Source: an uncultured Acidimicrobiia bacterium (GTDB lineage: Bacteria > Actinomycetota > Acidimicrobiia > Spongiisociales > ZC4RG35). From it: DNA of 64,000 bases. The stretch lies in NCBI GenBank assembly GCA_963761985.1, contig CAVXIT010000003.1:55237-119236 (forward strand), read 5' to 3'. The position numbers and the translations under genes are program-made. Shown here piece by piece: positions 1-59,820 of the stretch (within the stretch, counting starts at the first letter, position 1; every line of letters starts with the position of its first letter). The notes under the pieces are model-generated. The model searched no databases and was not told where the DNA came from. It saw only the letters and a list, made by a program, of their open reading frames with translations.

Positions 1-751
1 CCCAAACCGCGGCGAGCACCACAGCGCACCCGAGCACCCCAAGGAGTGCGTCGAGCCACAGTCGGACGCAGCCGGAAGCCAAATTTCCGTCGCCGACGGC
101 GGCCGAACACGAGGAGAGCGATGATTCCGACGCAGGCGATCCACCGACGACCCAGCTCCCGGTCTCTCCGAGCGAACCCCTTGATCCGCCCCCGATGAGT
201 TGGAATGTTGTGTCCATGGGAGCAATGGTGCGACCGCTGGCGGTGAGCCAGGCAAAGCCACGCCAGACCAGCAATCCGACCAGGGTGACGATGAAAGAGG
301 GAACGCCGACATAGGCGACGATCGACCCTGGAAGGCCCCGATGAGGGCACGCCGAGCGACATAGGCCGACGGCGAGGATGATGACCCAGATCCAAGGGTT
401 GCCGCAACCCCATCATGTCGGGGAGCGATACTCTGTCTGAAGCATGGCCATGACCATGCCGACGACGCCCACCATTGAGCCAACCGAGAGGTCGATGTTG
501 CGGGAGACGATGACGAGCACCATCCCGGTAGCCATGATCCCCACCGAGGAGGTCTGCACCGAGAGGTTCCACAAGGTTCCGGGGAGTGAGGAACGTTCCA
601 CCCGAGATGAGGTGAAAGCTGATCCAAATCACGACCAGGACACCAGCATGCCGACCATCCGGGTGTCGATCTCGCTTGTCCCGCAGGAAGGATCCAAGTG
701 ACCTGCCGGGGCTCGGTTTCGAGTTGTCTAACTGGGTGCGGGGAGCCTCTA
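1..751 (-). pseudogene. Sugar ABC transporter permease (XylH/RbsC type), broken by several frameshifts; continues off the left edge
   Basis: Minus-strand permease fragments lie in different frames. '[54 protein letters not shown]' covers 413..601. My own translation of 1..400 gives 'VPSFIVTLVGLLVWRGFAWLTASGRTIAPMDTTFQLIGGG' and 'IACVGIIALLVFGRRRRRKFGF'. No single open frame exists. Confidence 0.6.
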
Positions 752-828
752 CCACGCTCATGGGATCACCACCTACGGGAGAGGGGTCGCATTGCGCCCC
801 CGAAAGATCCGGGGGCGCACTGCATGAA

Positions 829-2027
829 TCAATTCGCTTCAGTCGTTGGCGACCATGGGCAGGCAGCAACGCTTCCTGCAGTCGACGCCAGCACAAAGCG
901 CCTCCGACCGTGATCCAGTTCCGCGTCCACGCACCATTGGAGGTTCTCCTGGGTGATCGGGATCGGAGTCAGCAGGATGCTGGTCAGAACCGTCTCTGCT
1001 CCGGACTCCTTGTTCGGTAAGTCGAACTCGGACCGTTCCCTCGACGTCGGCAAGGGAGGCACCCTGAGCCAAGTGCCACGGCGGCCTCTCCGGCAGCGGT
1101 AGCCAAGTGCCGGGCGTCCTTCCACACCGAAACCGACTGTGTTCCGAGCCGCTACCCGGTTGAGGGCGGCGAGGTCTCGTCCTGTCCCGAGACCGGCAAC
1201 CGTGCCGAGCGAGACCCTGGGCCTCGAGAGCGGCGGCTACGCCGCTGGCCATTCCGTCGTTCTCGGACACCACGGCCTGCACGTCGTTGTTGTGCCTGGG
1301 TCAGCCACTGTTCGACCGTTTGGTTTGGGCCAGAGCCGGGATCCCAGTTGTCGGTGTAGGTCCTCACCAAGGATGGTGATGTCGCCGGCCGTGACTGCGT
1401 CCCCGATCACCACTTCGATTCCCTCGCGAAGGAAGTCGGAGTTGGCGTCGCAGCCATTGCCCTTGACGATGAAGTAGTTCCCGGTCGGCACCAGCTCGAA
1501 GATCACTTCGGCCATCAGCTGGCCCACGAGGACGTTGTCGAAGCTGACGTAAAGGGTCCGGGATCCGCAATCAGGCGGTCATAGCCAATTACCGGGATGC
1601 CCTGCTCGAGAGCAGCAAGCCACCGCCGGGCAGGATCGCTTCGGTGTTCTGAGCCAGGATGATCAAGGCGTCCGCGCCCTCGGCGATCAGGTTCTCCACG
1701 TCAGCGATTTGCTGCTCTTCCGATGAGCCGGCATCTGCCGAGATGTACGTGCCACCGCCGGCCTCGATGGCGGCATTGATCGCGGGCTCATCGCACATGG
1801 CCCAGCGCTCTTCGTTGTAGTTGTTCCAGGAAACTCCGACGACGATTTCGTCATCCGTGGCACCGGTGGTGGCCGTTGCTCCGGTAGTGTCGGTAGCAGC
1901 GGTGGTGTTCCGTTGCCCCGGTGGTCGCTGGGGTGTCATCGGCCGTTGTCGTGGCCGCATCGCCGCCTCCGCAGGCAGCGAGGATCAGCACGAGAACAGC
2001 CAGTAACGCCAATAGGCGTCGATTCAT
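829..2027 (-). pseudogene. Sugar (xylose-type) ABC substrate-binding lipoprotein, at least 3 frameshifts
   Basis: The lipoprotein signal 'MNRRLLALLAVLVLILAACGG' starts at 2027 but hits a stop after about 58 codons. Mature-domain pieces lie in different frames: 'DDEIVVGVSWNNYNEERWAMCDEPAINAAIEAGGGTYISADAGSSEEQQIADVENLIAEGADALIILAQ' (1589..1960), 'YFIVKGNGCDANSDFLREGIEVVIGDAVTAGDITILGE' (1237..1527), 'QAVVSENDGMASGVAAALEAQGLA' (839..1282) and 'LLTPIPITQENLQ' (829..1125). Confidence 0.65.
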
Positions 2028-2165
2028 CTGTTTTCTCTCCTTGTTGGACGAAAGGCCCCAAACCTTTGATTGCGGACCTATTTGTCAGGCCCGGCAGGCG
2101 AGAACGCTCGCTGGGTTACCCGAGCATACCGATGAGCAGGGCCTGGGTCGGCCCGAATCGGGCGG

Positions 2166-3145
2166 TTACCTTTCCTCCGCGAATATGCGTTCGAGCACCT
2201 CCAGGTTGGCTATCGCGTCTTCGGGCGGCGTCGGGACTTCAGTGCCATGACGGATCGCCCGGGCAAAGGCATCTGCCTGGACTTGATACTGATCCGCGGC
2301 CGGGATCTCATGGATCGTCAGGCCCGGATCGGTCGGAGGCGATCCGCCCGCAAATTGGAGGATCCGGGTCGGCCGGTCGGGGGGAATGTTGAAGGGGATC
2401 TCGATCAGCAGCCTGCCGTTGGTCCCCTGGATATGGACTCGTTGATCGTCCTCGAGCTGGGTCGAGCAGGTAAAGGTGGCGTGACGGCCGTCGAAGTCGA
2501 GCAGCACCGAAGTGAGGACGTCGGTCTGGAACGACGGGTCGCGTCCGATCGCAGCTCGAACAGTCGTGGGCTCTTGACCGAACAACATCCTGGCGACGTT
2601 CACCGGATAACAACCGATGTCGTACAAGGACCCGCCACCGACAGCCGCGATATTGCGAATGTTTCCGGGATCCAGATTCCTATACGAGAAAAACGATTGG
2701 ATCGCGCGGAGCTCGCCGATGGCTCCTTCCTCGATCAGTCGTCTTGTCTCGACCCAAAGCGGATGAAGCCGATACATGAAGCGCTTCCATCAGCTTGACG
2801 TTGGCGGTCCGGGCGGCGGCGACCATCGACTTCGCTTCATCACTGGTCATCGCCAGAGGCTTCTCGCAGAGAATGTGCTTTCCCGCTGCGGCGGCGGCGT
2901 ACGTCCACCGGGCGTGCAGGTGATTGGGAAGCGGGATGTAGACCGCTTCGATCTCGGGGTCGGCCAGGAGGGCTTCATAAGAGCCGTACGGCTTCTCGAT
3001 GTCGAGCTCCCGGGCGCAGCTTTGGCAGCGACGTCCATCGAACGAGAGGCGATCGCCCTTCACGCGGCCCGAGTTGCGACCGCTGGATCGCCGGAATGAC
3101 CTTCTTGCGGGCGATGTTGGCGGCTCCCAACACTCCCCACGCCAA
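2166..3145 (-). pseudogene. Gfo/Idh/MocA family oxidoreductase, at least 3 frameshifts
   Basis: The Rossmann N-terminus 'LAWGVLGAANIARKKVIPAIQRSQLG' (TTG at 3145) is in one frame and 'AIASRSMDVAAKAA' in a second. 'RELDIEKPYGSYEALLADPEIEAVYIPLPNHLHARWTYAAAAAGKHILCEKPLAMTSDEAKSMVAAARTANVKLMEA' (2680..3063) is in a third. The C-terminal half 'MYRLHPLWVETRRLIEEGAIGELRAIQSFF...' (2166..2777) shifts again. Confidence 0.65.
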
Positions 3146-4874
3146 CGGCGTCTTCGCTCACTGGTCTATCGATCACTGGCCGCATTGTTGTCGCGGCACC
3201 CGGATAGAGCAACTCGTCAAGCAAACAAGCTCGCGTGATGTCGGATTGCTCGGTTGGAGCCGGCTCTGGTTGGAGCAGCCCGGCGGCAGGGGATGGTGGG
3301 CGTTGGCCGCTATCTCGATTCGGGCGTGCCCGAGTCGGCCTTGGCGCCTCCCCGGTATCGTCGCCGAAGACGTCGGCATAGAGCACACATATGACGGCGA
3401 ATTCCAATATTTCGTCGGCGGGGGAGTGGCCGTCGCCGATTGCAATGCCGACCTCAAACCGGATGTTTTTCTGGCAGGAGGCGAGAACCCGAGTGCGGTC
3501 TATCCGAAACGAGAGCGTCGTGGCAGGAGCGATCCGGTTCGAAGAAGGTTGACGTACCTGCGGCCGAGCTCGATGGAGTGACAGGCGCGTATCCACTCGA
3601 TATAGACAGTGACGGCCTGGTCGATCTCGCCGTCCTGCGGGCGGGAGAGAACCTGATGCTCCGAGGTATGGGAGATTGTCGATTCGAACCCGCCAACGAA
3701 CTGTGGGGTATCGATGGCGGGGACGACTGGACGGTCGCGTTCAGCGCAACCTGGGAGGAAGGGGAGTCGCTCCCGACCCTTGCGTTTGGCAACTATGTCG
3801 ATCTGGGTCCCAATGGCGAGCGAAACGGGTGTTCTCCTCATCAACTTTTCCGTCCGTCAGGTGACCGCTACGGCAATGCCGAAGTTCTTAGCCCTGGCTG
3901 GTGCACGCTGTCGATTCTCTTCAGCGATTGGGACCGGACCGGAAGGCATGATCTGAGGATGACGAACGATCGTCATTACTACCGCGGCGGGGAGGAGCAG
4001 CTCTGGCGGGTGGAGGCCGGCGAGCCGGCGCGGCTTTACACCCGGGAGGAAGGCTGGCAGCCGATGAAGATCTGGGGGATGGGAATTGCCAGCTACGACC
4101 TCACCGGCGATGGACTGCCCGAAGTTTTTCTTACGAGCCAAAGCGACAACAAGCTGCAAACTCTCGCTGCTGATCCGAGCTCCCCTCATTATGAAGACAT
4201 CGCCTTCCGCCTTGGGCGCCACCGCGCACCGTCCCTACACCGGCGACGTCAATCGGCCGTCGACCGCCTGGCATCCTCAGTTCGAAGACGTGAACAACGA
4301 TGGTCTCATCGATTTGTTCGTTTCCAAAGGAAACGTCGAAGCCATGCCGGACTATGCCGCGCAGGACCCCAACAATCTCTTGCTGCAGAACGCTGATGGC
4401 ACCTTTAGCGAAGCGGCCGAATCGGCCGGCATAGTCGACTTTGGGCGCAGTCGGGGCGCGTCGTTGGCCGATTTCAACCATGACGGCATGCTCGATCTCT
4501 TGGTGGTGATGCGGCGCGAGAACGTGGCTGTCTGGCGGAACACCGGCTGGGGCGAGGCAACCGATCCGCAGCCGATGGGCAACTGGGTCGCCCTCCGTTT
4601 GGAACAAACCGGTGCGAATCGAGACGCAATCGGCGCCTGGATCGAGGTCAAGGTCGGCCGGCGGGTGCAGGAACGCGAGTTGACCATCGGTGGCGGCCAC
4701 GCCAGCGGCAGCCTCGGCTGGACTCACTTCGGTCTCGCCGATGCAAATTCGGCCGAAGTCAGAGTGCGCTGGCCCGACGGCGAGGTTGGGCCGTGGATGA
4801 ATGCTGCGGCCAACCATTTCTTCTTCGCCGCCCGCGGAGAAGCGGACCTGCGCGTCTGGGACGGAGACGATTGA
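3096..4874 (+). pseudogene. CRTAC1 / ASPIC-UnbV family FG-GAP (VCBS) repeat protein, at least 2 frameshifts (5' limit uncertain)
   Basis: One protein is split over three overlapping ORFs. They are 'EDVGIEHTYDGEFQYFVGGGVAVADCNADLKPDVFLAGGENPSAVY' (3096..3581), 'DGVTGAYPLDIDSDGLVDLAVLRAGENLMLRG...IASYDLTGDGLPEVFLTSQSDNKL' (3440..4396) and 'FEDVNNDGLIDLFVSKGN...ADFNHDGMLDLLVV...NRDAIGAWIEVKVGRRVQERELTIGGGHASG' (4086..4874). Confidence 0.6.
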
Positions 4875-4882
4875 CCAACGCG

Positions 4883-6256
4883 ATGCTGCCCAAAGCCATC
4901 TTGCAACGTGTTGAGCTCCCCGATTTTGGTCCGCCCGGGCCAATGCCCGAGATTCCGGCTCACATCTATCGAGACCGCGTCGCACGTCTCCGCGAGATGG
5001 CCGACTCTCGCGGGTACGACGCCGTGGTCGTATATGCCGACCGCGAACACAGCGCCAACGTGTCCTACCTATCTGGTTTCGACCCGCGCTTCGAAGAGGC
5101 TTTGTTGATTATCGGGCGAGAGCCCGAGCCGGCAATCCTGGTGGGCAACGAGTGCTGGGGAATGGCCGGGGCGGCGCCGCTGGAAATGCGGAGGCACCGA
5201 TTCCAAGACTTCAGCCTGCCGAATCAGCCGCGCGACCTGTCGCGACCTCTCTCGGCGATCCTCACCGGGGAAGGAATCGGTCCGGGGACGCGGGTGGGCG
5301 TCGTGGGGTGGAAGACATTTGCCGAGAGATCCCTTACCGACGTTCCCGCCTATCTCGCGGACGCCATCCGCAACCTGACCGCAGGCGAGATCGAGAACGC
5401 GACCGACCTTCTCATCGATCCCGGCTTTGGTCTGCGGGTAGTCAACGAGATCGAGCAGCTGGTGATGTTCGAGTACGCCGCATGTGCAACCTCGAGCGGA
5501 CTCCGTCGCCTGCTCTTTGGTCTCCAACCCGGGATGACGGAGCAAGAGGCAGTGCGTTTGCTCGAATGGAACGGGATGCCGCTGTCATGTCATCTGATGT
5601 TGACCGCCGGCCCGCGAGCCAGCCTTGGTTTGCTCAGTCCCTCCGATCGCCCGATCGCGCGTGGCGATCCTTTTACGGTGGCGTTCGGGATTTGGGGTGC
5701 CCTCAATTGCCGAGCCGGATTCGTGGCGGAGAATCGCGAAGAACTCCCTTCCGGCATCAGGGACTATGTCGAGCGTCTGGTCGCTCCCTATTTTGAGGCG
5801 GTTGTCGAGTGGTACCACGCCTTGCACGTCGGGCAGGAGGGGGCCGTTCTTCAACAGATCATCGACCGGAGACTCCACGACCCTTTCTTTGGAATCTTTC
5901 TCAACCCCGGCCATCAACTGCATCTCGACGAATGGGTCAACTCGCCAATATGGCCGGGTTCGCCGGTCAAGTTGGCCTCGGGCATGGCTATGCAAGTCGA
6001 CATCATCCCGGCCACAGGAACCGAGTACTTCACGACGAATATCGAAGACGGGATCGTCCTGGCGGACGAGGATCTCAGGAAGCGGTGGGCGGCCGACTAT
6101 CCGGACTCATGGCTGCGAATCGAGAGTCGTCGGGGGTTCATGCGGGAACAACTCGGCATCGAGCTTCATGACGATGTCCTCCCGCTCTCGAACATCCCTG
6201 CGTATCTACCACCGTTCTTGTTGAGCCCCGATCACGTCATGACCATGGCCGGCTAG
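4883..6256 (+). CDS. Creatinase/prolidase-fold (M24-like) protein
   Basis: Intact 457-aa ORF from ATG 4883, 8 nt after the upstream stop. The N-terminal domain is creatinase/prolidase-like ('YDAVVVYADREHSANVSYLSGFDPRFEEALLIIG'). The C-terminal pita-bread-like part includes 'GMAMQVDIIPATGTEYFTTNIEDGIVLADEDL'. Confidence 0.55.
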   Translation: MLPKAILQRVELPDFGPPGPMPEIPAHIYRDRVARLREMADSRGYDAVVVYADREHSANVSYLSGFDPRFEEALLIIGREPEPAILVGNECWGMAGAAPLEMRRHRFQDFSLPNQPRDLSRPLSAILTGEGIGPGTRVGVVGWKTFAERSLTDVPAYLADAIRNLTAGEIENATDLLIDPGFGLRVVNEIEQLVMFEYAACATSSGLRRLLFGLQPGMTEQEAVRLLEWNGMPLSCHLMLTAGPRASLGLLSPSDRPIARGDPFTVAFGIWGALNCRAGFVAENREELPSGIRDYVERLVAPYFEAVVEWYHALHVGQEGAVLQQIIDRRLHDPFFGIFLNPGHQLHLDEWVNSPIWPGSPVKLASGMAMQVDIIPATGTEYFTTNIEDGIVLADEDLRKRWAADYPDSWLRIESRRGFMREQLGIELHDDVLPLSNIPAYLPPFLLSPDHVMTMAG

Positions 6257-7794
6257 CCGGCGTCGATGGCGTCCGCGATCAGCCAGCGACCTCCCTCACC
6301 GGGTGTGAGTACGAAGACCGAGTCGAATGGAAGCGGCGTACGAGCGAGCTCAGCGCCCGAGACGTCGTATTCGATCATGGTCTTGGTGCCGGACGCCTCC
6401 ATCGCCAGGCTGGCTCCACCCTGGGGGCCGTCGGTAAAAGCGACATCCAACTCCAACCTCTCGAATTCGTAGTCGGTCACTACCAATCGGCCGTTGGTCG
6501 CCGCCGCTTCGATGTTGCGTTCCATGGCCAGCAGTCGGGCTCCCACAGAGGCGGCGCGAAGGAGACTTGTGTCCGCCGTGAGCATTGCTTGGTTTTCGAT
6601 CAAGAGCGCCTCGGCAAAACCGGCGGCCACGTCGACGGGATCGGCGGAGGATGCGTGATTCAGGGCAGCCGCGTCTGAAGAGACCGACACAGGGGGCAGC
6701 GATGATCGATCGACTTGAGCGCTGATGGTTGCCGGGACCGACGGGCGCACGACAGGGGCTCCACGCGCCGGCGCTCCCGCAGCCACGATTCCGGTTGCCA
6801 GCAACACCGCAATTGCTCCCACCGCGGCACCTGAAACGAAGGCGGGACGAACCGAAGTGAGGCGCCCCAGGCGCAAATCGGAAAACCGGGCCGAATAACG
6901 ATCGATGGCGAATCGAAGCGGGGTGAGAAGTACGAGTCCTGCGAGCAGGCCAACCTTGGCTCCGAACTCAGTGCTTTGCGATGCCATCAGCAAGGTGCAG
7001 GTGATTCCGAGAATCGACGAGAACCAAATCCGGCCAGCGCGCCCCGAGGGAATCGTCTTCGGATCGGTGATCATGAAAAAGAGGAAGATCAAGAGCTCCG
7101 GGGACGTCATCACGGCCCCCCAGAAGTTGAAACCGCACACCGGGTTCAGCGACCAGGCAGCAGTGATGCAATGTCCCGAGGCTGAGAGCACGCCGAGCCC
7201 CGCCGCCAGGGACATCCAGAACGTTGCGGCCAACACCAAAAGCTTGAGGCGCGCGGTGATGAGCAGCCCGCCGGTCAGGATGATCAGGTATGCGACAACC
7301 ATGCCGGCGGTGAGCGGCGCCCACCAGAAGTCGAGCGGTTCGATGATGTTCGAGCCGAGGACGAGAAAGGCGACGACCAGCCCCAGGTTCGAGGGGTTGA
7401 ACAGATGCGACCCCCGATAACGGATCACGTATTTGGACACGAGCGAAAGGCCGGCGACCAGCGCGAACAAATGCCAGCCCCGCCAGGACCAGTGGTCCCC
7501 GCGTTCCTGCCCCACGATCCGCAGAATGAGGGCCACACCGCTCCCGGTCAGCATCGCGCTGGCCGGCCAGACGATCTCTTTACGGGTGACAAATACCCAG
7601 GCGACTTCGATCAGGGCTGAAGTCAGAATCGCGGCGAGAATCTGGGGAATTGAAACCCGAAACCCGAGCGCGACCTGGCCAAGAATGTGAACGGAGATGA
7701 TGACTGCCGCAAGATGGAGGCGTGGATCTCGGATGTTCGGCAGGACGACCGGATAGGTCGCCGCTCCGAGACGCATCGTCCTCGCCGTCATCAA
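6253..7794 (-). CDS. Polytopic membrane protein, RnfD/NqrB-like (UnbU-like) core with a soluble C-terminal domain
   Basis: 513-aa intact ORF with about 8-9 hydrophobic spans. RnfD-like motifs 'ASAMLTGSGVALIL' and 'HLFNPSNLGLVVAFLVLG' are present. The C-terminal ~170 aa are non-membrane. The UnbU assignment is from memory of the UnbU/UnbV pairing, so it is low certainty. Confidence 0.55.
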   Translation of the reverse strand: MMTARTMRLGAATYPVVLPNIRDPRLHLAAVIISVHILGQVALGFRVSIPQILAAILTSALIEVAWVFVTRKEIVWPASAMLTGSGVALILRIVGQERGDHWSWRGWHLFALVAGLSLVSKYVIRYRGSHLFNPSNLGLVVAFLVLGSNIIEPLDFWWAPLTAGMVVAYLIILTGGLLITARLKLLVLAATFWMSLAAGLGVLSASGHCITAAWSLNPVCGFNFWGAVMTSPELLIFLFFMITDPKTIPSGRAGRIWFSSILGITCTLLMASQSTEFGAKVGLLAGLVLLTPLRFAIDRYSARFSDLRLGRLTSVRPAFVSGAAVGAIAVLLATGIVAAGAPARGAPVVRPSVPATISAQVDRSSLPPVSVSSDAAALNHASSADPVDVAAGFAEALLIENQAMLTADTSLLRAASVGARLLAMERNIEAAATNGRLVVTDYEFERLELDVAFTDGPQGGASLAMEASGTKTMIEYDVSGAELARTPLPFDSVFVLTPGEGGRWLIADAIDAG

Positions 7795-7871
7795 TCCATT
7801 CTGGCGTATCGTGGCGCCCCCAAATTGATCAAATTGGCGTAGGCGATGACACCAAGAATGGATTGTTCAGG

Positions 7872-8480
7872 ATGAATTACAACTACGAGCGGTTTGACGA
7901 GTACGTCGAGTCGGGCGAGGACGAGAAGGAGTTCTCGACGTTTTTCGATCAGCTCCATGCCGGTGATCCTGCGCCAAATGCCACTCTGACCTCACTTGCC
8001 GGCGGTGCCAAGGTCCGTCTGGCGGACTTCTGGGCAAACCGAAACCTCGTGATCGAATTCGGCTCCTATACCTGACCGTACTGCTCGGTAGAGGGTCCTC
8101 TACTTTGCGATATCGCTGAGAAGTTCGAAGACACCAATTGGGTCTTCATCTACACCCGGGAAGCTCATCCAGGCGAAAAAATTGGAGCGCAACAGAGTTT
8201 CCAGGAAAAGGTGGCCAACGCCACACGGCTCCGAGATGAGATCGGAATCCGGCGGCCGATATTGGTCGACGATCTCGAGGGCTCGGCGCATCATGCGTAC
8301 GGGTTGCTGCCCAACATGACCTGGGTCATCGGACGTGGTGGCCGGATCATCTACAAGGCAGACTGGACGAGCGCGGCCAACGTCGAGGCTTTCCTGGAGA
8401 GGCATGAATCGGGCCGATCACGCCGACCCACGGCAGGGATTGTTGCGCCCCTATCTCACCGAGCAAGTCGAATTTCGTGA
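7872..8480 (+). CDS. Thioredoxin-fold, iodothyronine-deiodinase-like protein with in-frame TGA (candidate selenocysteine) at 8073..8075
   Basis: ORFs 7722..8075 and 8211..8480 share a frame, and the only interruption is TGA 8073..8075. Read-through gives '...NLVIEFGSYT-U-PYCSVEGPLLCDIAEKFEDTNWVFIYTREAHPGEKIG...'. That is a UxxC motif where deiodinase/Trx-like proteins carry Cys/Sec ('FGSxT[C/U]P', 'EAHP'). The 3' end may continue in the +1 frame to 8586 (see findings). Confidence 0.55.
8087..8104 (+). promoter_or_regulatory. Candidate bacterial SECIS hairpin
   Basis: 'GGUAGAG-GGUC-CUCUACU' is a 6-7 bp stem with a GGUC tetraloop. It begins exactly 11 nt after the UGA. As I recall it, the E. 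coli fdhF minimal SECIS 'GGUUGCAGGUCUGCACC' has the same spacing and loop. Confidence 0.5.
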
Positions 8481-8609
8481 CCTGGACCGCCCGAAGTTCT
8501 ATTCGCTCCTTGAGCGCAACGGGCCGCGGGCGCGGAGCGAGTTCCATCGGGCTGAGGAGATTTGGCGACTTCGGGAGAGTTCCTAGATCCGTACCATCGC
8601 TTCCCGATC

Positions 8610-10375: not shown

Positions 10376-10789
10376 GTGCCAGGAACCTGGGTCCTATATA
10401 CCGACGGCGCTTCGCGCGGTAACCCGGGCCCGGCATCGATCGGAGCCGTTCTCTACAGCTGGGTCGAGGGCGAACCTTTGGTCGAAGTCGATCGCGTCAG
10501 CGAGGCCATCGGGGAGGCCACCAACAACGTGGCCGAATACCGCGCCGTAATCGCGGGGCTCAAGATTGCTCAGGCCCAGGAGCCGGATTTGCTCTGGTTG
10601 CGAGCGGACAGCTTGCTCTTGATCCGACAACTCGAAGGTCGGTTCAAAGTCAAGAATCCTGCTCTGATCGAACTCCATCGCCAGGCTCGCGCCTCCCTCG
10701 AGAACTTTCCTTATCGCCTGGAGCACGTGCCTCGCGAGCAGAACACCGTGGCCGATCGCCTGGCGAATCTCGCGCTCGACCTCAGGTAG
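10376..10789 (+). CDS. rnhA: Ribonuclease H family protein
   Basis: 'YTDGASRGNPGPASIGAVLY', 'NNVAEYRAVIAGL', 'HVPREQNTVADRLAN'. Confidence 0.8.
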   Translation: MPGTWVLYTDGASRGNPGPASIGAVLYSWVEGEPLVEVDRVSEAIGEATNNVAEYRAVIAGLKIAQAQEPDLLWLRADSLLLIRQLEGRFKVKNPALIELHRQARASLENFPYRLEHVPREQNTVADRLANLALDLR

Positions 10790-10792
10790 ACC

Positions 10793-11236
10793 TTGCTCCT
10801 CTGGCACGTCGCTGGCGCCATCTTCTTGTTCGGATGGATCTTTCGCGATCCCAAAGTCGACGTCCGCCTGTTGGCTTTGGGCGCCTTGACCCCTGACGTT
10901 GTCGACTTCGTCGTCGGGCTTTTTGTGGGTGGTGTCACAGTGTCCCGGATCGGCCACTCGCTCCTCCTTCCGACTCTGACCGCTGTGGCAATTCTCCTGA
11001 CGACCCGGCGCGGACGTCGCCGGCGGAATTTGATGACCCTGGTGGTCGCCTGGCTTTTTCACCTCGTGCTGCAAGGGACTTGGTTCGATGGCGAGGTCTT
11101 CCTTTGGCCGTTCCTCGGCGCGGAGCTGGCGCCATCCCTGCCGGGCACCATCTGGACGCGCGCCGCTGAACCCTGGCGCTGGGTGAAGGAAGCGGCCGGC
11201 TTTGTCTACCTGTGGACCCGGCTACGGTCGCCCTGA
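10793..11236 (+). CDS. Membrane-bound metal-dependent hydrolase-like protein (YdjM/DUF457-like)
   Basis: 147-aa hydrophobic ORF packed tightly between neighbours. Contains 'LTPDVVDFVVG...HSLLLP'. Confidence 0.45.
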   Translation: MLLWHVAGAIFLFGWIFRDPKVDVRLLALGALTPDVVDFVVGLFVGGVTVSRIGHSLLLPTLTAVAILLTTRRGRRRRNLMTLVVAWLFHLVLQGTWFDGEVFLWPFLGAELAPSLPGTIWTRAAEPWRWVKEAAGFVYLWTRLRSP

Positions 11237-12210
11237 TGGAGCTTGCCGTCAGCGCGACCAGCCCGGGATGGTCCGTCGCTCAGCTGGCTGAGCTGTGCGA
11301 GTTCGCTGAAGGGCTCGGATTTCGACAGGCTTGGGAAGCCGAAGTGGCGGGACCCGATCCGTTCGTTCTCGCCACGGCCATCGCGGCACGCACCAAAACA
11401 ATGGAGATAGGTGTAGCCGCGGTTCCCGTCTACACGCGCAGCGCTACCACGTTGGCGACATCGGCTCTCTCGGTTAGCAACGTGCTCGGTGGGCGGACCT
11501 TTCGTCTAGGCCTGGGCAGCTCGAGCGAGGTGATCGTCTCGGGATGGCACGGCCTGGATTTCACGGACCATCTCCGCCGGGTGCGGGAAACGGTCGAAAG
11601 CATCCGGGCGATTCTCAATGGGGACGCTGAGTACGTCGGAAAGACCATTTCGATGAGGAAGTTTCGACCAGCTGTGTCTCCCGCGGGTCCAGTTGAGGTC
11701 TGGGTGGCAGGCCTGCGACCGCGCATGCTGGCGCTGGCCGGAGCTGTCGCAGATGGCGTGTGTCTCAATCTGATGCCGCCTCGTGTCGTCTACGACCAAC
11801 TCGCTGCGGTAGCGGGCGGGGCTGAATCCGCAGGCAGAGAGACTCCGAAAGGGGTAATGGCGCGCCTTCAGGTGCTGGTGACCGATAACGCTCGATCAGC
11901 GCGCGCAATGCTCCGCTCCGAGTTTCTCGGTCCGTATCTGGCTCAACCGGTATACAACCGCTTCCTCGATTGGATGGGATATCCCGAGGAGGCCCAAGCC
12001 ATCGCAGAGGCGTGGGGCCGGCGCGATCGGTCGGCGTTGGCCGCCTCGATTCCCGATCGCCTGGTTGATGAGCTTGCTCTGATCGGCAATCGTTCCGAGG
12101 TCAGGGCACGCCTCGACGACTTCGCGGAGGCGGGGGTGACCGTGGCCGCCATATCCGTTCTGGTTCCGGACCGTCAGGTCGTCGAAGAAACTCTGCGATC
12201 CCTAGTTTGA
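11236..12210 (+). CDS. LLM-class (luciferase-like) flavin/F420-dependent oxidoreductase
   Basis: ATG 11236 overlaps the upstream stop (TGATG). 'LGFRQAWEAEVAGPDPFVLATAIAARTKTMEIGVAAVPVYTRS'. Confidence 0.75.
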   Translation: MELAVSATSPGWSVAQLAELCEFAEGLGFRQAWEAEVAGPDPFVLATAIAARTKTMEIGVAAVPVYTRSATTLATSALSVSNVLGGRTFRLGLGSSSEVIVSGWHGLDFTDHLRRVRETVESIRAILNGDAEYVGKTISMRKFRPAVSPAGPVEVWVAGLRPRMLALAGAVADGVCLNLMPPRVVYDQLAAVAGGAESAGRETPKGVMARLQVLVTDNARSARAMLRSEFLGPYLAQPVYNRFLDWMGYPEEAQAIAEAWGRRDRSALAASIPDRLVDELALIGNRSEVRARLDDFAEAGVTVAAISVLVPDRQVVEETLRSLV

Positions 12211-12223
12211 CTACCAGCCCTGA

Positions 12224-12919
12224 CTACCAGACCGGCCAGGGAATCGCCGGACGATCGGTCGGCGGGGCGGGATGGGTCCCCGCGGACAACAGGTCGGCCA
12301 CGCGCCGTTGCAGGGCCGTGAGCGCACTCGCATCGAGAAGTCTGGCCATGATCCTCCCAAGGTCATCGGAGAGCGCGACCTTGACGGTCGCGAGCGCCTG
12401 CAAGTGCTCTGTCGGGATTTGGCGGCCGGCCAATCCCCACAGCACCGTCCGCAATTTCGGTTCAGGGTGGAAGGTGAGGCCGTTGTCGATGGCCCAGAGG
12501 TGACCGTTTTCGGATAACAGATGGCCGAGCTTGCGGTCGGCGTTGTTGGAGATGACGTCGAGTATTGCCAGCGGCCAAAGCGCCTCGTTGACCAACGGAA
12601 CAAAGAGAGGGCGCGGGTCGAAGTCTTCGTCAGCCTCGACGAATCGTTGAGCGGAGCCCGGACCAAGGGGACCATCGGCCAGCGCGGTATAGGGGATGAG
12701 GCTGAAACCGAGCGCTTCGGATAGCAGGTAGGTCGCCACCTCCCGACGCGGCAATGTCGTGGCGTCGAAGTCCCAAAGCTCGGTCATCGCCCGCTCCGCT
12801 TTGTACACCCATTTGTCCCCGGCCGCGTCTTTGGCGAGCAAGGTGAGGTTGGACGCTGAAACGAACTCACCGATGATCTCGGTCAGTTCGACGCGCGGCT
12901 GATCAGATGTGATGACCAT
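12224..12919 (-). CDS. SCO1664-family protein (PI3/4-kinase-like fold)
   Basis: 'ASNLTLLAKDAAGDKWVYKAERAMTELWDF...REVATYLLSEALGF...ISNNADRKLGHLL'. Conserved actinobacterial triad with the next two genes. Confidence 0.7.
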   Translation of the reverse strand: MVITSDQPRVELTEIIGEFVSASNLTLLAKDAAGDKWVYKAERAMTELWDFDATTLPRREVATYLLSEALGFSLIPYTALADGPLGPGSAQRFVEADEDFDPRPLFVPLVNEALWPLAILDVISNNADRKLGHLLSENGHLWAIDNGLTFHPEPKLRTVLWGLAGRQIPTEHLQALATVKVALSDDLGRIMARLLDASALTALQRRVADLLSAGTHPAPPTDRPAIPWPVW

Positions 12920-13394
12920 TGCTCGAAGGGCAGCGGTGACCTTCTGGATTCATCGGTAGCTGACAACGCGGACAAATCGGTCGTCCTGCTGCGACGACTT
13001 TTGCGGCGACCAGGGCCATGGCCCGGAATTGCTCGGCGGTGACAATGAAGCGGACCTCGTCTTCCGCCTCTTCTGACCCGAACACCAAGGTGATGAACTC
13101 GTTCGCCACGATGGCGATCGCGATCGTTGAAACGCGAAACGACAGCGATTCGGGTTGGGTGATCTCGAGGCCGCTCGCCACCAGATGTTCGACCGCTCCT
13201 TCGTCGATGTTCAAACCGGCGGCAGACAAGAGTTGTAGCCCCCGCTCGGCGAGGTCGGCGACCTGGGTCTTCTCGCAAGGAAATGTGTGGACCTCGGCAT
13301 TGGCCGTCACCTCGAGGAAGAAGAATCGGGAACCTGGCTCGCCGATGGCGCCGGCGACAAATCGTTCTGCCGGTCCGAGGTCTTTCAATGCCAT
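12903..13394 (-). CDS. DUF3090-family protein
   Basis: 'FVAGAIGEPGSRFFFLEV...CEKTQVADLAER...GRPICPRCQLPMNPEGHRCP'. Confidence 0.7.
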   Translation of the reverse strand: MALKDLGPAERFVAGAIGEPGSRFFFLEVTANAEVHTFPCEKTQVADLAERGLQLLSAAGLNIDEGAVEHLVASGLEITQPESLSFRVSTIAIAIVANEFITLVFGSEEAEDEVRFIVTAEQFRAMALVAAKVVAAGRPICPRCQLPMNPEGHRCPSSNGHHI

Positions 13395-13990
13395 GTCGAG
13401 GGATCTCCGTTGCTATTGAGCGCAAGCAACCGCGGCCAGGTTCCCAGATCGAGAACGGTCACCGAGGCAGGCGCAACCGCAATGCGGTTGAAAAGGTCGA
13501 GCGGCTGTCCCAGATAGTGGGAAGCAATGGCCTTGATCGGGTCACCGTGGCTGACGAGGGCGATGGTGGCTTGGCGATGACGCGCGGCTAATTCTTCGCA
13601 CGTTGCGACTGCCCTCTGCTGAGCCGCGAGAATCGTTTCACCGCCCGGAAACCCGGCGCGGGAGGGGGTTTTGATCACCGTCTGCCAGTTTCGCAGCGGA
13701 CGCAATGACTTCATGGTCCGCCCCGACCATTTTCCATAGTCCACTTCGAGCAGGCCGGGATGGGGTATGACCTTCCGCTTCTGCCGGGCCGCGATGGGTG
13801 CGGCCGTCTCCATGGCGCGTTCGAGCGGCGATGAGTAGATGGCGCTAATTCGGATGCTCGAGAGGCGCTCGCCCAGTTTCTCGGCCATCTGCTGGCCCTG
13901 TTCGTTCAACGAGTAACCGGCGAGGCGGCCGCTCAACGAACGACCGGTCTCCCTCGTCGGAGCATGCCTGATCAGCAGAAGTCGGGCCAC
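13385..13990 (-). CDS. Histidine phosphatase family protein (MSMEG_4193-type putative phosphomutase)
   Basis: 'LLLIRHAPT...' RH motif and 'VSHGDPIKA' second His motif. Confidence 0.8.
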   Translation of the reverse strand: MARLLLIRHAPTRETGRSLSGRLAGYSLNEQGQQMAEKLGERLSSIRISAIYSSPLERAMETAAPIAARQKRKVIPHPGLLEVDYGKWSGRTMKSLRPLRNWQTVIKTPSRAGFPGGETILAAQQRAVATCEELAARHRQATIALVSHGDPIKAIASHYLGQPLDLFNRIAVAPASVTVLDLGTWPRLLALNSNGDPSTWH

Positions 13991-14813: not shown

Positions 14814-14820
14814 AGCCACG

Positions 14821-15173
<353 letters not shown>

Positions 15174-15636: not shown

Positions 15637-16292
15637 GTGTCGATCAATAAGTACCTGGCCGAGGCGGTGGGCACCTTCATATTGGTGTTTGTCGGCTCGA
15701 TGTCGGTACTCGCCGCCGCAGCGACTCCGGAGTGCCGGTAATGGTGGCCGTGCCTCTTGGCTTTGGATTGGGGCTGATGGCCGCGATTTTCGCCGTAGGC
15801 CATGTCTCCGGGGGACACTTCAACCCCGCGGTCACTTTGGCGATGTGGCTGGATAGGCGGACCTCTTCGTCCGACCTCATTGGCTACTGGATCGGCCAGT
15901 TTGTGGGCGGGATCCTCGCCTCGCGCGTCGTCCTCGCGGCAACAAGCCGAGATGGTGTTGAGGCGACGGTAAACCGTCCGCTCGAGGGCAGCCGAGTACG
16001 GGTTGCTGATGGAGTTCGTGCTTACCCTGATCTTCGTTCTGGTGATCCTCGCATCGACCGAAAAGGCGCCGGCTGTCGCGGGACTTGGTGATCCCTTTCA
16101 CACTTGCGGCGGTGCACCTCGCCGGGATCCCGTTCTCGGGCGCCTCGGTCAATCCGGCCCGTTCGTTCGGGCCCGCCCTGGTCAGCGGCTCCTTCAACCA
16201 GGTATGGATCTACCTGGTCGCGCCCCTTGGCCGGGGCCGCGGTGGCATGGGTGTTTTGGCGCATGTTTGGCGGCGACGAACCCGAGGCTTGA
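15637..16292 (+). pseudogene. Aquaporin / MIP-family channel, about 4 frameshifts
   Basis: RBS 'AAAGGAGG' then GTG 15637. 'VSINKYLAEAVGTFILVFVGSMSVLAAA' stops at 15739. The first NPA piece 'GHVSGGHFNPAVTLAMW' is in 15732..16091. '[15 protein letters not shown]' starts at 16003. The second NPA piece '[20 protein letters not shown]' is in 16085..16369. The C-terminus '[18 protein letters not shown]' is in 16104..16292. All are in different frames. Confidence 0.7.
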
Positions 16293-22324: not shown

Positions 22325-22909
22325 CTACTCGGGGCCGTCGAAGGTTTCGCCCAGCACTGTCTGCCCTGGTCGTTCGCCGGCCAGGACGGCGTCGATGGTG
22401 GTGCCGAGCACCAAGGCATCAGTCGGGCCAATCGCCTTGCCCACGATGATGCCGTCAGCGGCGACAAAGAAGGTCTCGGGGATGCCGAAGACGCCGTAAG
22501 CAATTGCCGCCCGGCCGTCGGGGTCGGCGAGGTAGACCGCATCGGTTGAGAAGCCGGTTTCGTTGAGAAAGGCGAGAGCGTTGTCGGCCGTGTCTTGATA
22601 CACGATCTCGACGACCGTCACCCCACTGTTCGAGAAAGCATCGGCCGTTGCAGTCAAGTCCACCTGCTCTTCGCGACAGGGGATGCACCAGGAGGCGAAG
22701 AAGTTCACAATCACCACGCGACCTTCGAGCTGGGCGGCGTCGAAGACACCCGAACCGTCGAGCAGAGGGAGGGCGAGGGAGGGAGCAGGTTGGCCGAGCA
22801 ACGGCGAAGGAACGAGGTTCGGATCGCTGCCGAACCGGTTAGAGAAGATCACGGCCAACACGACCGCACCTGCTGCAAGAAGAATCGCGCCAAGTCGGGC
22901 GAGCCTCAT
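22325..22909 (-). CDS. ccmG: Thiol:disulfide oxidoreductase CcmG/ResA (TlpA family)
   Basis: N-terminal TM anchor and 'VNFFASWCIPCREE'. ATGA overlap with ccmH. Confidence 0.8.
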   Translation of the reverse strand: MRLARLGAILLAAGAVVLAVIFSNRFGSDPNLVPSPLLGQPAPSLALPLLDGSGVFDAAQLEGRVVIVNFFASWCIPCREEQVDLTATADAFSNSGVTVVEIVYQDTADNALAFLNETGFSTDAVYLADPDGRAAIAYGVFGIPETFFVAADGIIVGKAIGPTDALVLGTTIDAVLAGERPGQTVLGETFDGPE

Positions 22910-23923
22910 GGGCAGGCTTCGCCGGCTTCGACCGCGGCAAGGTCCGTCTCCACGCGGTTACGCACTTCGTCGTCGATTCCGTCCGACGAAAGAACGGATG
23001 CAAACAAGGTCGTAGCACCGTCGGAGTCGTCTTTCCCACACCAAAGGATGCGCCCCTTGAGATAGATCGCGAAGGCGTCCTCGGGGACCAGTTCGAGACC
23101 GCGATCGATTAGCTCAATCCCGAGGTCAGCCTCCCCATTGCCGTCATAGACCATCCAGCCCAAACGGGTAAAAGCGTTGGCTGCCTCATTGGGGGCAGGC
23201 TCGTTATCGAGGACCGTCTGAAAGTGACCGAATGCCTGCTGATAGGCGCCTTCCTCGAAGTAGCGGTTAGCGAGAGCCAGTCGCATGCCGTTGATCGCAG
23301 GGTTGTCAGCGTTGGCTGCCACCACTGCCTCGAGGGTCTCGTTGGAGACGGAGTCGGGGTCGAAATCCGTCCCGGCCACGCCGGTCAGTGTCTGATCTTC
23401 GGGTCGAGCTTGTTGGAACTGACCAATGGTGGCGATGGCGATCGCACCCCCCATGACCAACACTCCCGCTCCCCAGATCCAGCGTTTTGACACAAGGGAC
23501 GAAGGCCCCGGTTTCGATTCGATCGTTGCTGTCCGAAAGCGCCGAGCCACCATTGCCGTGCCGACACCAAGTGCGAACAGGGGAGCCAGCCAGAGCCACA
23601 GGGTTGCGCCACGCGCCGGCGGGTCGAGAAGCAGAGAACCGCCGTAGGAGGCGATCAACTCGTCGATGATCTGCTGATCCGACTCGCCTTCGCCGATTCG
23701 CAGGCGAACGAGGTCCATCATGTTGCGAGCCGTCTCCGATGGCGAGTCGATGATCGCTTCGCCCTGGCAAACCGGACAGCGGATCTGGCTTCCGATCGCT
23801 TCCGCCCGATCTTCGGGCGCCGCCGGAGCCAATGCCACGAGCAAGGCAACTCCGAGCGCTAGCGCGGTCAGCGCCAGCCATGAGCCAACCCGCCCAAAGC
23901 GATGCACACGGGTGCGTGCGTTC

Positions 23924-23931
<8 letters not shown>
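22906..23931 (-). CDS. ccmH: Cytochrome c maturation protein CcmH fused to a TPR (CcmI-like) region
   Basis: 'IRCPVCQGEAIIDSPSETARNM' followed by a TM span and TPR-like repeats. Confidence 0.75.
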
Positions 23932-25942
<2,011 letters not shown>

Positions 25943-56579: not shown

Positions 56580-56828
56580 ACAGCCGCCGCGTATGATCCG
56601 AGCTGGCCGCATGGTGCCCCCACACCGAGCGGCGTAACCCCACGACAGGGTTTTGAGCGGGAACCCCCCTGGCGCCCGCCCGATGGAGTCCCTGTCGAGC
56701 CCTTCGCGAGAAGGGCGGGCGGGGCTCCGGTTCCCCCCTTGCCGGAGCCCCGCACACCTTTCGGACGCGTGTGTCCACAAGATCAGTTTGTTTGCGCCTC
56801 CCTCGGTTAGCCTTGTGGTGCTTTAGAT

Positions 56829-56934
56829 CCGAATGGGAGAGACCTCCCAAATTGAATCGATTGATTCTTGACTTGGGGAGGTCGCCGAAGGGGCAACTGC
56901 TCCCCGCAATCTCTCAGGCCGAAGGACCATTCGG
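56829..56934 (+). promoter_or_regulatory. Glycine riboswitch (single aptamer) upstream of gcvP
   Basis: P1 pairs 'CCGAATGG' with 'CCATTCGG'. Conserved cores 'GGGAGAG', 'CGCCGAAGGGGCAA' and 'CTCTCAGGCcgAAGGAC'. It lies 55 nt upstream of the gcvP start. Confidence 0.8.
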
Positions 56935-56988
56935 TGAGGCGAGGCTGAAGGCATGAGGCCGACAGTCGGGGAAAGAAGGGATGAGCGA

Positions 56989-59820
56989 ATGGAGTTGCTC
57001 ACCGAGTTTTCCCGACGACACATCGGTCCTCGACCGGCCGACGTGCAAAAAATGCTGGCCGAGATCGGTGCCGCCTCGCTGGACGATCTCATCGCCCAGA
57101 CCGTGCCCGGTTCGATTCGCTCGAGCGACGATCTCTTGCTCGACCCACCGCTTACCGAGCCCGAGGCGCTCGATGAACTCCGGCGGCTTGCGCGTGAGAA
57201 CCAGGTGCTCACGTCGATGATCGGTCTCGGCTATTACGACACCTACACCCCGGCGGTCATCCGACGCAATGTTCTCGAAAACCCTGCCTGGTACACCGCC
57301 TATACGCCCTATCAACCCGAGATCTCTCAGGGCCGGCTCGAGGTGCTACTGACCTATCAAACGATGGTGTCGGACCTCACCGGATTGGATCTCGCCAACG
57401 CCTCCTTGCTCGACGAGGGGACCGCGGCAGCCGAAGCGATGACCATGTGCCGCCGTCTGGCCGGGGCCGCATCCGAGTCCACAGTCTTTTGGGTAGACAG
57501 CGATTGCAACCCTCAGACCATCGCGGTCTTGACCACGAGGGCGGAGCCGGTTGGCGTGGAGGTCCGGGTTGCCCATCCCCACGAATTCGACCTGTCCGAT
57601 GCATTTGGCATCCTTCTCGCCTACCCGGGCTCGTCCGGCGAGATTGCCGACCATCAGGCAACCGTCCAGGAGGCCCACAAGGCGGGCGCGCTGGTTGCCG
57701 TCGTCACCGATCTCCTTGCCCTCACTTTGCTTCCCCCGCCCGGATCCTGGGGCGCCGACATCGCGGTGGGTTCGTCGCAGCGCTTCGGGGTCCCGATGGG
57801 ATTTGGCGGACCACACGCCGCTTTCATCTCCACCAGAGACTCGTTGGTGCGAGCGCTGCCTGGCCGATTGGTTGGTGCGGCAAAAGACCGGGCGGGGCGC
57901 ACGGCCTTTCGTCTCGCCCTTCAGACCCGAGAACAGCACATTCGACGAGAACGAGCCACTTCCAACGTCTGCACTGCCCAGGTGCTGCTGGCGGTGATGG
58001 CGGCGCTATACGCGTGCTGGCATGGCCCTGAAGGCCTGGTCGCGATTGCCCGCACGATCCATCATCTTGCCGGCCGCCTGGTCGCCTCCCTGCGGAGTGC
58101 AGGTCTTGAAGTCGAGAACAGCCAATGGTTTGACACCATCACCGTCCGGGCCGAAGGGAGGGCCGATGAAATTGTGACCTCGGCTCGCGCAAGCGGAATC
58201 AACTTGCGCCGCGTCGACCCCGACCGGGTCGCCATCTCTTTCGACGAGACCCATGGCGATGACGATCTCGAGCGGTTGGCCACGATTTTCGATATTGACC
58301 TCGTCGACCGCGCCGAATCCGGAATCCATGACTTCAGGCAAGGAGAGTTTCTGACTCACGAGGTCTTTCACCGCTACCGCTCCGAGCACGAGATGCTGCG
58401 CTATCTGCGCCGTTTGGCCGAGCGTGACCTTGCGCTTGACCGGACGATGATCCCGCTGGGCTCATGCACCATGAAACTGAATGCCACCACGGAGATGCTC
58501 CCGATCACGATGGAAGGTTTTGCGCGGATGCATCCCTTCGCCCCCTCGGAGCAAACGGCCGGGTATCGCCACCTCATCTCTGAGTTGGAGTCCTATCTCG
58601 AGGAGATAACTGGCTACGCCAAAGTCTCGCTGCAACCGAACGCCGGCTCCCAGGGCGAGCTCGCCGGTCTTTTGGCCATCAAGGCCTATCACCGATCCCG
58701 CGGGGACAACGAACGCAACCTCTGTCTGATCCCCTCCTCCGCGCATGGGACCAACGCCGCTTCGGCGGTGATGGCCGGCATGCGGGTTCTGGTCGTCGCT
58801 TGCGACAAAGATGGCAACGTTGATCTCACCGATCTCGAAGAAAAAGCTGCGGCCAACGCTGAACGACTGGCGGCGGCGATGGTGACCTACCCGTCGACAC
58901 ATGGGGTCTTCGAGGAGGGCATCACCAGACTCTGCGAGATCGTCCATCAACACGGAGGTCAGGTCTACGTCGATGGGGCCAACCTCAATGCGCTCGTTGG
59001 GCTGGCGCGGCCCGGCCGCTTTGGCGCCGACGTCTCCCATCTCAACCTCCACAAGACTTTCACCATCCCTCACGGTGGGGGCGGTCCCGGGGTCGGACCG
59101 ATCGGGGTTGGTGCCCATCTCGTCCCGTTTCTCCCCAACCATCCTTTGGTCGAAGGCGCCGGACCGGATACGGGGATCGGACCGATCTCGTCTGCCCCGT
59201 GGGGCTCGGCCGGGATACTGCCGATCCCATACACCTACATCAGGCTCATGGGGGCGGCGGGGCTCCGCCGGGCAACCGAGGTGGCGATTCTCAACGCCAA
59301 CTACCTTGCCCAGAAACTGCATCCCCACTTTCCCGTGCTTTACACCGGGCGGGGGGAGCGGGTTGCCCACGAATGCATCCTCGACCTACGCCCGATCGCC
59401 AAGACCACCGGCATAACTGCCGAGGACGTGACCAAGCGTCTCGCCGACTACGGGTTTCATGCTCCGACCTTGAGCTTTCCCGTTCCTGGCACGTTGATGA
59501 TCGAGCCGACCGAGAGCGAGTCGCTCGAGGAGCTGGACCGTTTCTGTGAGGCAATGATCGCAATCCGAGCAGAGATTGCAAGAGTCGAAAACGGGGAGTG
59601 GACCGAGGCTGACAACCCCTTGCGCAACGCACCCCACACGGCTGAGGACGTCGTCGACGATAAGTGGGAGAGGCCCTACTCCCGCGAGTTGGCGGCTTTC
59701 CCGGTTGAGCGACTACGTCGGGGCAAATACTGGCCGCCGGTGTCCCGAATCGATCAGGCAGGCGGGGACCGAAACCTGATCTGTGCGTGCCCGCCACTGT
59801 CGGAGTACAGCCCGGATTGA
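56989..59820 (+). CDS. gcvP: Glycine dehydrogenase (decarboxylating), single-chain P-protein
   Basis: 'FSRRHIGP', '[14 protein letters not shown]', PLP region '[22 protein letters not shown]'. ATG 56989 is preferred over 56953 (RBS 'GAAGGGA'). Confidence 0.9.

Follow-up and report, generated by a model that had tools for sequence, protein, structure and literature searches.

A probable deiodinase-like selenoprotein gene with an in-frame UGA and an fdhF-like SECIS hairpin in an uncultured Acidimicrobiia bacterium

Organization of the locus

The window, the whole 64-kb stretch of DNA that was analyzed, carries a forward-strand gene in two visible pieces. The ATG at 7872 and the ORFs at 7722..8075 and 8211..8480 fall in one common frame when the sequence is read directly, and translation of 7872-8480 meets a sole stop, TGA 8073-8075, in the context ...VIEFGSYT-stop-PYCSVEGPLL...WVFIYTREAHPGE...; in the frame set by ATG 7872, read-through at this codon gives ...NLVIEFGSYT-stop-PYCSVEGPLLCDIAEKFEDTNWVFIYTREAHPGE... 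An earlier examination made from the DNA letters alone (the sequence-only reading) had described a single frame broken only by this TGA, and its coordinates proved exact on translation. With the TGA taken as selenocysteine (Sec) and one surplus base at 8446-8451 removed, the product is a protein of 237 aa. The features of the gene, with the evidence for each, are as follows.

7872..8586, + strand: complete gene for a probable deiodinase-like selenoprotein (Pfam PF00837, full-length homolog alignment, dN/dS)
7872..8072, + strand: N-terminal coding segment of 67 codons, MNYNYERFD...VIEFGSYT (conserved motifs, dN/dS)
8073..8075, + strand: UGA read as probable Sec, residue one of a U-P-Y-C redox motif (homolog alignment)
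8087..8104, + strand: predicted bacterial SECIS hairpin (covariation, invariant codons, fdhF geometry, bSECIS consensus)
8076..8450, + strand: central coding segment in frame 0, with the thioredoxin-fold core and an invariant YTREAHPGE (alignments)
8446..8451, + strand: single surplus base causing a +1 shift, either C8446 or one C of the run 8448-8451 (comparison with relatives)
8452..8586, + strand: C-terminal segment in the +1 frame, YLTEQVEFRDLDRP...EEIWRLRESS, with TAG stop at 8584-8586 (homologs, dN/dS)

The YNY..FD and EFGS(F/Y)T motifs of the N-terminal segment are conserved among homologs, and in all of them the C-terminal segment is conserved in one frame with the core.

Several other features of the window were recorded. 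A full-length bacterial RNase P RNA of class A lies at 14820-15170 on the minus strand (285.7 bits), and a glycine riboswitch aptamer (56824-56939, plus strand) is found directly 5′ of gcvP (56938-59820, plus strand), which encodes the glycine cleavage P-protein, in a textbook arrangement. At 22325-25942 on the minus strand, a protein of the AhpC/TSA-Redoxin family adjoins ccmF; it is an ordinary Cys-based relative from the same fold superfamily and is probably a CcmG/ResA-type thioredoxin of cytochrome c maturation. Three other same-frame ORF pairs split by one stop (23490, 53911, and 62311) were considered and rejected as unlike selenoproteins.

Protein family and fold

Profile and structure-sequence queries were made with the read-through protein, its stop replaced by Cys. 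The Pfam family T4_deiodinase (PF00837) was matched at E 2e-16 with 60.5 bits against a cut-off of 27, about twice the score of the weaker, above-threshold matches to AhpC/TSA and Redoxin, and the best sequence matches in the PDB were to mouse Dio3 (4TR3/4TR4, E 6.5e-11) and Dio2 (9H48). In the Dio3 alignment, viefgsytCpyc lies over vlnfgsctCppf, the Dio3 Cys being the Sec-to-Cys replacement in the crystallized protein, and iytreahpge lies over iyieeahpsd. An AlphaFold2 model of the Cys homolog P0005 (mean pLDDT 79, pTM 0.77) likewise found its best structural matches in Dio3 and Dio2, followed by TlpA/ResA-type thioredoxin-like proteins and peroxiredoxins. The protein has a thioredoxin fold with a deiodinase-type active site, with Sec as the nucleophile and Cys at the third residue after it. 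The proposal that the TGA is the first position of a UxxC motif within a deiodinase-like signature is borne out by FGSYT-[TGA]-PYC and by the T4_deiodinase match. The N-terminus, MNYNYERFDEYVESGEDEKEF, is acidic and has no hydrophobic stretch on direct reading, so that no membrane anchor is seen. The NCBIfam model NF038285 (deiodinase_rel) has the deiodinase-like domain in common with the window protein and was matched at E 6.5e-18, yet membership was rejected because the 65.3 bits fall below the cut-off of 250 and because that family is 347 aa long with an extra N-terminal region.

The UGA codon in homologs

Homologous DNA loci (n = 100) were collected with search patterns independent of the Sec codon, and comprised the closest relative (L001), 16 species-representative loci, 3 long-contig loci, and 80 metagenome loci. 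The species representatives belong to Acidimicrobiia, Euzebyaceae, Nitriliruptoraceae, Streptosporangiaceae, the cultured Haloechinothrix aidingensis, and one member of Dehalococcoidia; relatives found in the species-representative genome scan were at most 81% identical. TGA occupies the aligned codon in 100 of 100 checkable sequences, a count that includes the window copy and leaves out L009, which begins just past the Sec codon. In H. aidingensis YIM 98757, for example, reading across the UGA gives FGSFT-U-PYCFAEGPLLDK. The Sec codon aligns both with the catalytic Sec of mouse Dio3 (U170C in 4TR3) and with the Cys of P0005, a full-length Cys homolog (FGSFTCPYC) and the one Cys form among the matches listed. 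The alignment with Cys homologs that the sequence-only reading had suggested as a check therefore places U on the catalytic residue in both cases, and homologs continue through this position with Sec or Cys aligned.

A protein search returned 1241 relatives. Among the best 120, almost every one is a gene call of 133-165 aa beginning just past the TGA (such as MEGPLLC... and VEGPLLC...), as is characteristic of genes divided by an in-frame stop; the upstream part is called in relatives as a separate ORF of 70-71 aa. That gene callers divide the homologs in the same way would be expected if TGA 8073-8075 were a plain stop or nonsense codon, the locus then being either a disrupted gene or a pair of small ones (67 aa and ~165 aa). 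This is very improbable, however, as the TGA is kept in all 100 sequences across several actinobacterial orders and one Dehalococcoidia, the called downstream starts vary from locus to locus, and the two parts build a single thioredoxin-fold domain whose active site falls at their junction. Both parts also lie in one frame under selection: in pairwise comparisons of the window with five relatives, dN/dS was 0.07-0.13 over the 66 codons before the TGA, 0.05-0.14 from the TGA to the frameshift, and 0.08-0.17 after the frameshift, with dS at least 0.6 throughout, values that indicate purifying selection on both sides of the UGA. Together with the covariation in the hairpin described below, the universal TGA and a dN/dS of ~0.1 on either side support the original contention that the codon specifies Sec and is not a nonsense mutation.

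In two JGI gene calls (P0004 and P0006) the protein is full length and Trp is printed at the Sec position. Such calls would suit a genome-wide change of code in which TGA is read as Trp or Gly, but the metagenome gene caller probably applied genetic code 4 to the TGA. Within the window TGA is an ordinary stop, terminating 7 of the 15 genes confirmed by homology and 32 of the 61 long ORFs, which excludes a reassigned code; the carriers, Actinomycetota and Chloroflexota, use the standard code, and tRNA-Sec adjoins the gene in two loci. Code change is accordingly a vanishingly improbable explanation.

The SECIS hairpin

The RNA downstream of the UGA can form the hairpin GGUAGAG-GGUC-CUCUACU at 8087-8104, after a spacer of 11 nt (8076-8086). 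Its stem pairs G8087-G8093 with C8098-U8104 in 7 bp, one of them G-U, and its GGUC loop occupies 8094-8097, at a UGA-to-loop distance of 18 nt. Position, spacing and loop are those given in the sequence-only reading. Single-sequence folding energy is not significant (z -0.7 to -1.9); in a 42-nt fragment the hairpin is the minimum-energy fold with a z of only -1.4, and in a 53-nt fragment a competing fold is preferred (z -0.7). It is because of comparison among homologs, not folding energy, that the hairpin stands out beyond chance.

For this comparison, 60 distinct 42-nt homologous segments, each starting at the TGA, were aligned (alignment A2). The proposed helix is paired in 95.5% of cells across the 60 sequences, versus 34-59% with the 3′ partner slid by 1-3 columns. 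At pair 17-30, 54 sequences have C-G, 3 have U-A, and 3 have U-G; at pair 18-29, 45 have A-U, 10 have G-U, and 5 have U-A. Neither pair is open in any sequence, and the covariation score that was observed was reached by 0 of 500 shuffles. The U-A form of pair 18-29 swaps Leu for Gln, so that the RNA structure is preserved at the protein's expense. Codons +6, +7, and +8 are GAG, GGT, and CCT in 77 of 77 distinct sequences, with zero synonymous variation, while at its other sites the gene mostly uses GGC for Gly and CCG or CCC for Pro. These patterns place the hairpin under RNA-level selection. The possibility had been raised that close relatives would carry a Cys codon followed by sequence unable to fold; what was found instead is TGA throughout and a hairpin conserved with compensatory changes. 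In the one Cys-form sequence examined, the corresponding codons are GCC GAG AGC CCA CTG, in which the hairpin is impossible and has been lost.

The position of the SECIS is conserved across phyla and its sequence is not. The Dehalococcoidia locus (L016, 10193-10234) encodes a 40%-identical homolog with FGSAS-TGA-PYC, and its hairpin, equally far from the TGA, differs in being G+C-rich, with 8 bp and a loop of 3 nt. An Rfam search relaxed to E 10 gave no match at the window locus; that database covers bacterial SECIS elements poorly.

The published bSECIS consensus calls for G in the first two loop positions and a UGA-to-loop distance of 16-37 nt (PMC13188914), and the window hairpin, with its GGUC loop and 18 nt, agrees with it. 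The resemblance to fdhF noted in the sequence-only reading was also accurate: the Salmonella fdhF SECIS, UGA-CACGGCCCAUC-GGUUGCA-GGUC-UGCACC, has the same 11-nt spacer and the same loop (PMC4489274). The window hairpin and the fdhF element of Escherichia coli and Salmonella further share a 7-nt 5′ arm, GGUC at nt 22-25 counted from the U of UGA, and an identical codon register of the loop (GGU + C). They differ in that the stem sequences are unrelated and in that the upper stem of the window hairpin is perfect, without the bulged U that has been described as important for E. coli SelB (PMC4489274). Contiguous pairs number 7 in the window and 6-7 in homologs, and none of the hairpins has a bulge.

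A frameshift near the 3′ end

Frame 0 matches homologs through ...RRPTAGIVA (8447), and the +1 frame takes over at TAT 8452, which places one surplus base within 8446-8451 (GCGCCCCTAT); tblastn put the frame switch in the same interval. The base falls within GCGCCCC (8446-8451) and is absent from L001, L002, L009, and L018. Homologs read ...AGIVGPYLTEQVEFRDLDRP...EEIWRDR.. in a single frame; the window reads ...AGIVAPLSHRASRIS to a stop in frame 0 and YLTEQVEFRDLDRPKFYSLLERNGPRARSEFHRAEEIWRLRESS to a stop in the +1 frame from 8452. Past the lesion, which sits 44 codons before the stop, frame 0 continues for 9 unrelated codons to TGA 8478-8480. The sequence-only reading was right to suspect a 3′ frameshift and misplaced it at about 8400, where frame 0 is still homologous; its other suggestion, a small overlapping ORF from ATG 8404, is unneeded since frame 0 matches homologs past that point.

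A programmed +1 frameshift at CCC-CUA (8448-8453), with the P-site tRNA-Pro slipping on CCC-C before the rare CUA, is most unlikely. CCC C followed by a rare Leu codon does resemble known shift-prone sites, but the surplus base is present in no relative, and the other +1 events of the window occur in unrelated contexts.

These other events were found by frameshift-aware alignment of the L018 proteins against the window. All 33 of them fall in five genes, at 60-4211 and 15734-16223, which encode an ABC permease, a 380-aa hypothetical protein, a GFO/IDH/MocA oxidoreductase, an FG-GAP/ASPIC protein, and a MIP aquaporin; 15 other genes, interleaved with these, have none. Clustering by gene suggests either real decay or a locally poor consensus, and the bias toward single-base insertions (26 of 33, with the lesion in the deiodinase-like gene of the same kind) suggests artefact. 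The window copy, itself frameshifted and accompanied by five neighboring genes with multiple frameshifts, could therefore be dead. That the gene is a selenoprotein gene by descent and its window copy a recent pseudogene, the base at 8446-8451 being real, is a serious contender, rated slightly short of an even chance. Uniform sequencing error would not cluster in five genes, and the shift replaces a conserved C-terminus of 44 residues, many of them invariant, with 9 unrelated ones. Against this, the gene carries a single lesion, its hairpin and N-terminal ORF are undamaged, the sequence after the shift retains its low dN/dS, and natural decay seldom shows such an excess of single-base insertions, which consensus errors typically do. 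A single lesion amid intact signatures of selection means that the base is either an error or a very recent event, and a consensus error and a very recent inactivating mutation are about equally probable.

Selenocysteine machinery and gene neighborhood

The sequence-only reading had seen no selA, selB, selC, or selD in the window, and the searches agree: the 64 kb contain no tRNA genes, tblastn found neither selA nor selB, and Pfam detected no Sec-machinery domain in the 30 largest remaining ORFs. The first 18 kb, which are syntenic with L018, are likewise free of Sec machinery.

When selA and selB were sought by tblastn in the 100 loci, they were present only in H. aidingensis YIM 98757 (L014, 10001-13929). 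Here the deiodinase-like gene is followed on the opposite strand by selB (10755-12533), selA (12497-13789), and tRNA-Sec (13837-13929). In a second locus (L026, 2858-3696), a gap of 48 nt separates the homologous gene from a tRNA-Sec upstream of it, which is encoded on the other strand and scores 70 bits in Rfam. The gene is thus physically linked to the Sec machinery in two relatives. A 2026 preprint reports complete Sec machinery in all genomes of Actinomarina, a member of the class Acidimicrobiia, which gives support at the level of class only. Sec insertion would be expected in the window organism itself.

Other neighbors vary. A pyridine nucleotide-disulfide oxidoreductase lies ~700 nt upstream of the deiodinase-like gene in H. 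aidingensis, and in L026 the tRNA-Sec has a pirin gene on one side and an ABC transporter on the other. A class-I flavoprotein disulfide reductase is encoded within a few kb in 17 of the 100 loci (L044, L046, L047, L056, L057, L063, L066, L070, L075, L076, L078, L082, L083, L092, L093, L014, and L017), but the group is heterogeneous: the reductase of L075 passes the NCBIfam mycothione reductase cut-off, and the others are only ~30% identical to it. As a weak lead, it is possible that these enzymes are the electron-donor system for the deiodinase-like protein. In the window, the gene is divergent from one for a 513-aa multi-pass membrane protein (6253-7794, minus strand) that has no Pfam or NCBIfam match; the synteny of this gene, and of NIF3, also a neighbor in the window, is restricted to close relatives among the Acidimicrobiia. 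The copy in L017 (10001-10291), which reads ...HPGEHVGLPNMTW..., has large internal deletions and a partly missing C-terminus and retains the TGA and hairpin; it is probably decayed or misassembled.

Relationship to known families

Deiodinase-like bacterial selenoproteins were described in an analysis of Sargasso Sea sequences that reported four Sec-containing sequences together with Cys homologs and SECIS elements of the bacterial type, and that suggested a redox role (Zhang, Fomenko, and Gladyshev, 2005; PMC1088965). They were found again in the GOS data set, and reviews of 2022 and 2026 list the family under PF00837, with a UxxC motif and one Sec (PMC13188914 for one of these). The window locus is a further member of this already described prokaryotic family, with which it shares PF00837, Sec as the first residue of UxxC, a SECIS just past the UGA, and the existence of Cys homologs. 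As judged from descriptions, published members come from marine metagenomes whereas the clade of the window comes from soil, desert, and saline-lake Actinomycetota, and the clade is set apart by a conserved C-terminal extension of ~55 residues and by an almost exclusive use of the Sec form. The modest points that may be new are this near-exclusive Sec form, the C-terminal extension, the fdhF-like SECIS geometry, and the adjacency of sel genes in two lineages.

The animal deiodinases Dio1-3 have in common with the window protein a thioredoxin/peroxiredoxin-like fold, Sec at the same position in FGS-x-T-U-P, and Y-x-x-E-A-H-P. Comparison of their signature, FGS-x-T-U-P-P-F and E-A-H-P, with the FGSYT-U-PYC and REAHP of the window shows a common core in which P-F is replaced by Y-C. 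The differences are considerable: identity is only 23%, and the window protein has no N-terminal membrane anchor, is ~9 residues shorter in the deiodinase-specific insertion, and possesses an extra C-terminal helical extension. Its SECIS lies inside the coding sequence, whereas that of animals is in the 3′ UTR. [quoted passage not shown] TlpA/ResA/DsbE-type oxidoreductases and peroxiredoxins are alike in their weaker Pfam matches, many fold matches, and a CxxC-like redox motif; the window protein is distinguished from them by its EAHP motif and by having neither signal peptide nor membrane anchor.

Predicted function and significance

Taken together, the comparisons make it highly probable that the locus encodes a cytoplasmic thioredoxin-fold oxidoreductase of the deiodinase-like selenoprotein family, with Sec inserted at UGA 8073-8075. 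Counting against this reading are the absence of sel genes from the 64 kb, the frameshift in the window copy, the non-significant folding energy of the single sequence, and the negative Rfam search. In the proposed mechanism, a complex of SelB and Sec-tRNA(Sec) would bind the GGUC-capped hairpin 11 nt past the UGA and insert Sec, and the resulting U-P-Y-C active site would lie at the N-terminal end of the fold's first helix. This site most likely cycles between selenol/thiol and selenenylsulfide, with reduction presumably carried out by a cellular thiol system.

A more far-reaching suggestion is that the protein of the actinobacterial clade has a strict requirement for selenium and is a principal client for which these genomes retain the Sec machinery. 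The suggestion is speculative and unlikely to be correct as it stands. It draws on the presence of Sec in all 100 loci versus one Cys form, on sel adjacency in Haloechinothrix and another lineage, and on the Dio-type S-x-T-U / Y-x-x-E-A-H constellation with its built-in resolving Cys. If true, it would fit a chemistry in which selenium is irreplaceable, such as the reductive dehalogenation of halogenated aromatics as in animal deiodinases, and would fit less well with generic thiol-disulfide exchange.

What is known about recoding is unchanged by this finding, and its significance lies with the family and its hosts. In nearly every genome and metagenome examined, gene callers split the gene into two "hypothetical proteins"; recognition of the UGA as Sec would restore one redox enzyme of 237 aa and mark its host lineage as one that probably uses Sec. 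What bacterial deiodinase-like proteins do has been a question since 2005, and this clade has in Haloechinothrix aidingensis a cultured carrier. With the gene beside selC, selA, and selB in that organism, and with a clean fdhF-like SECIS, experimental tests should be straightforward.
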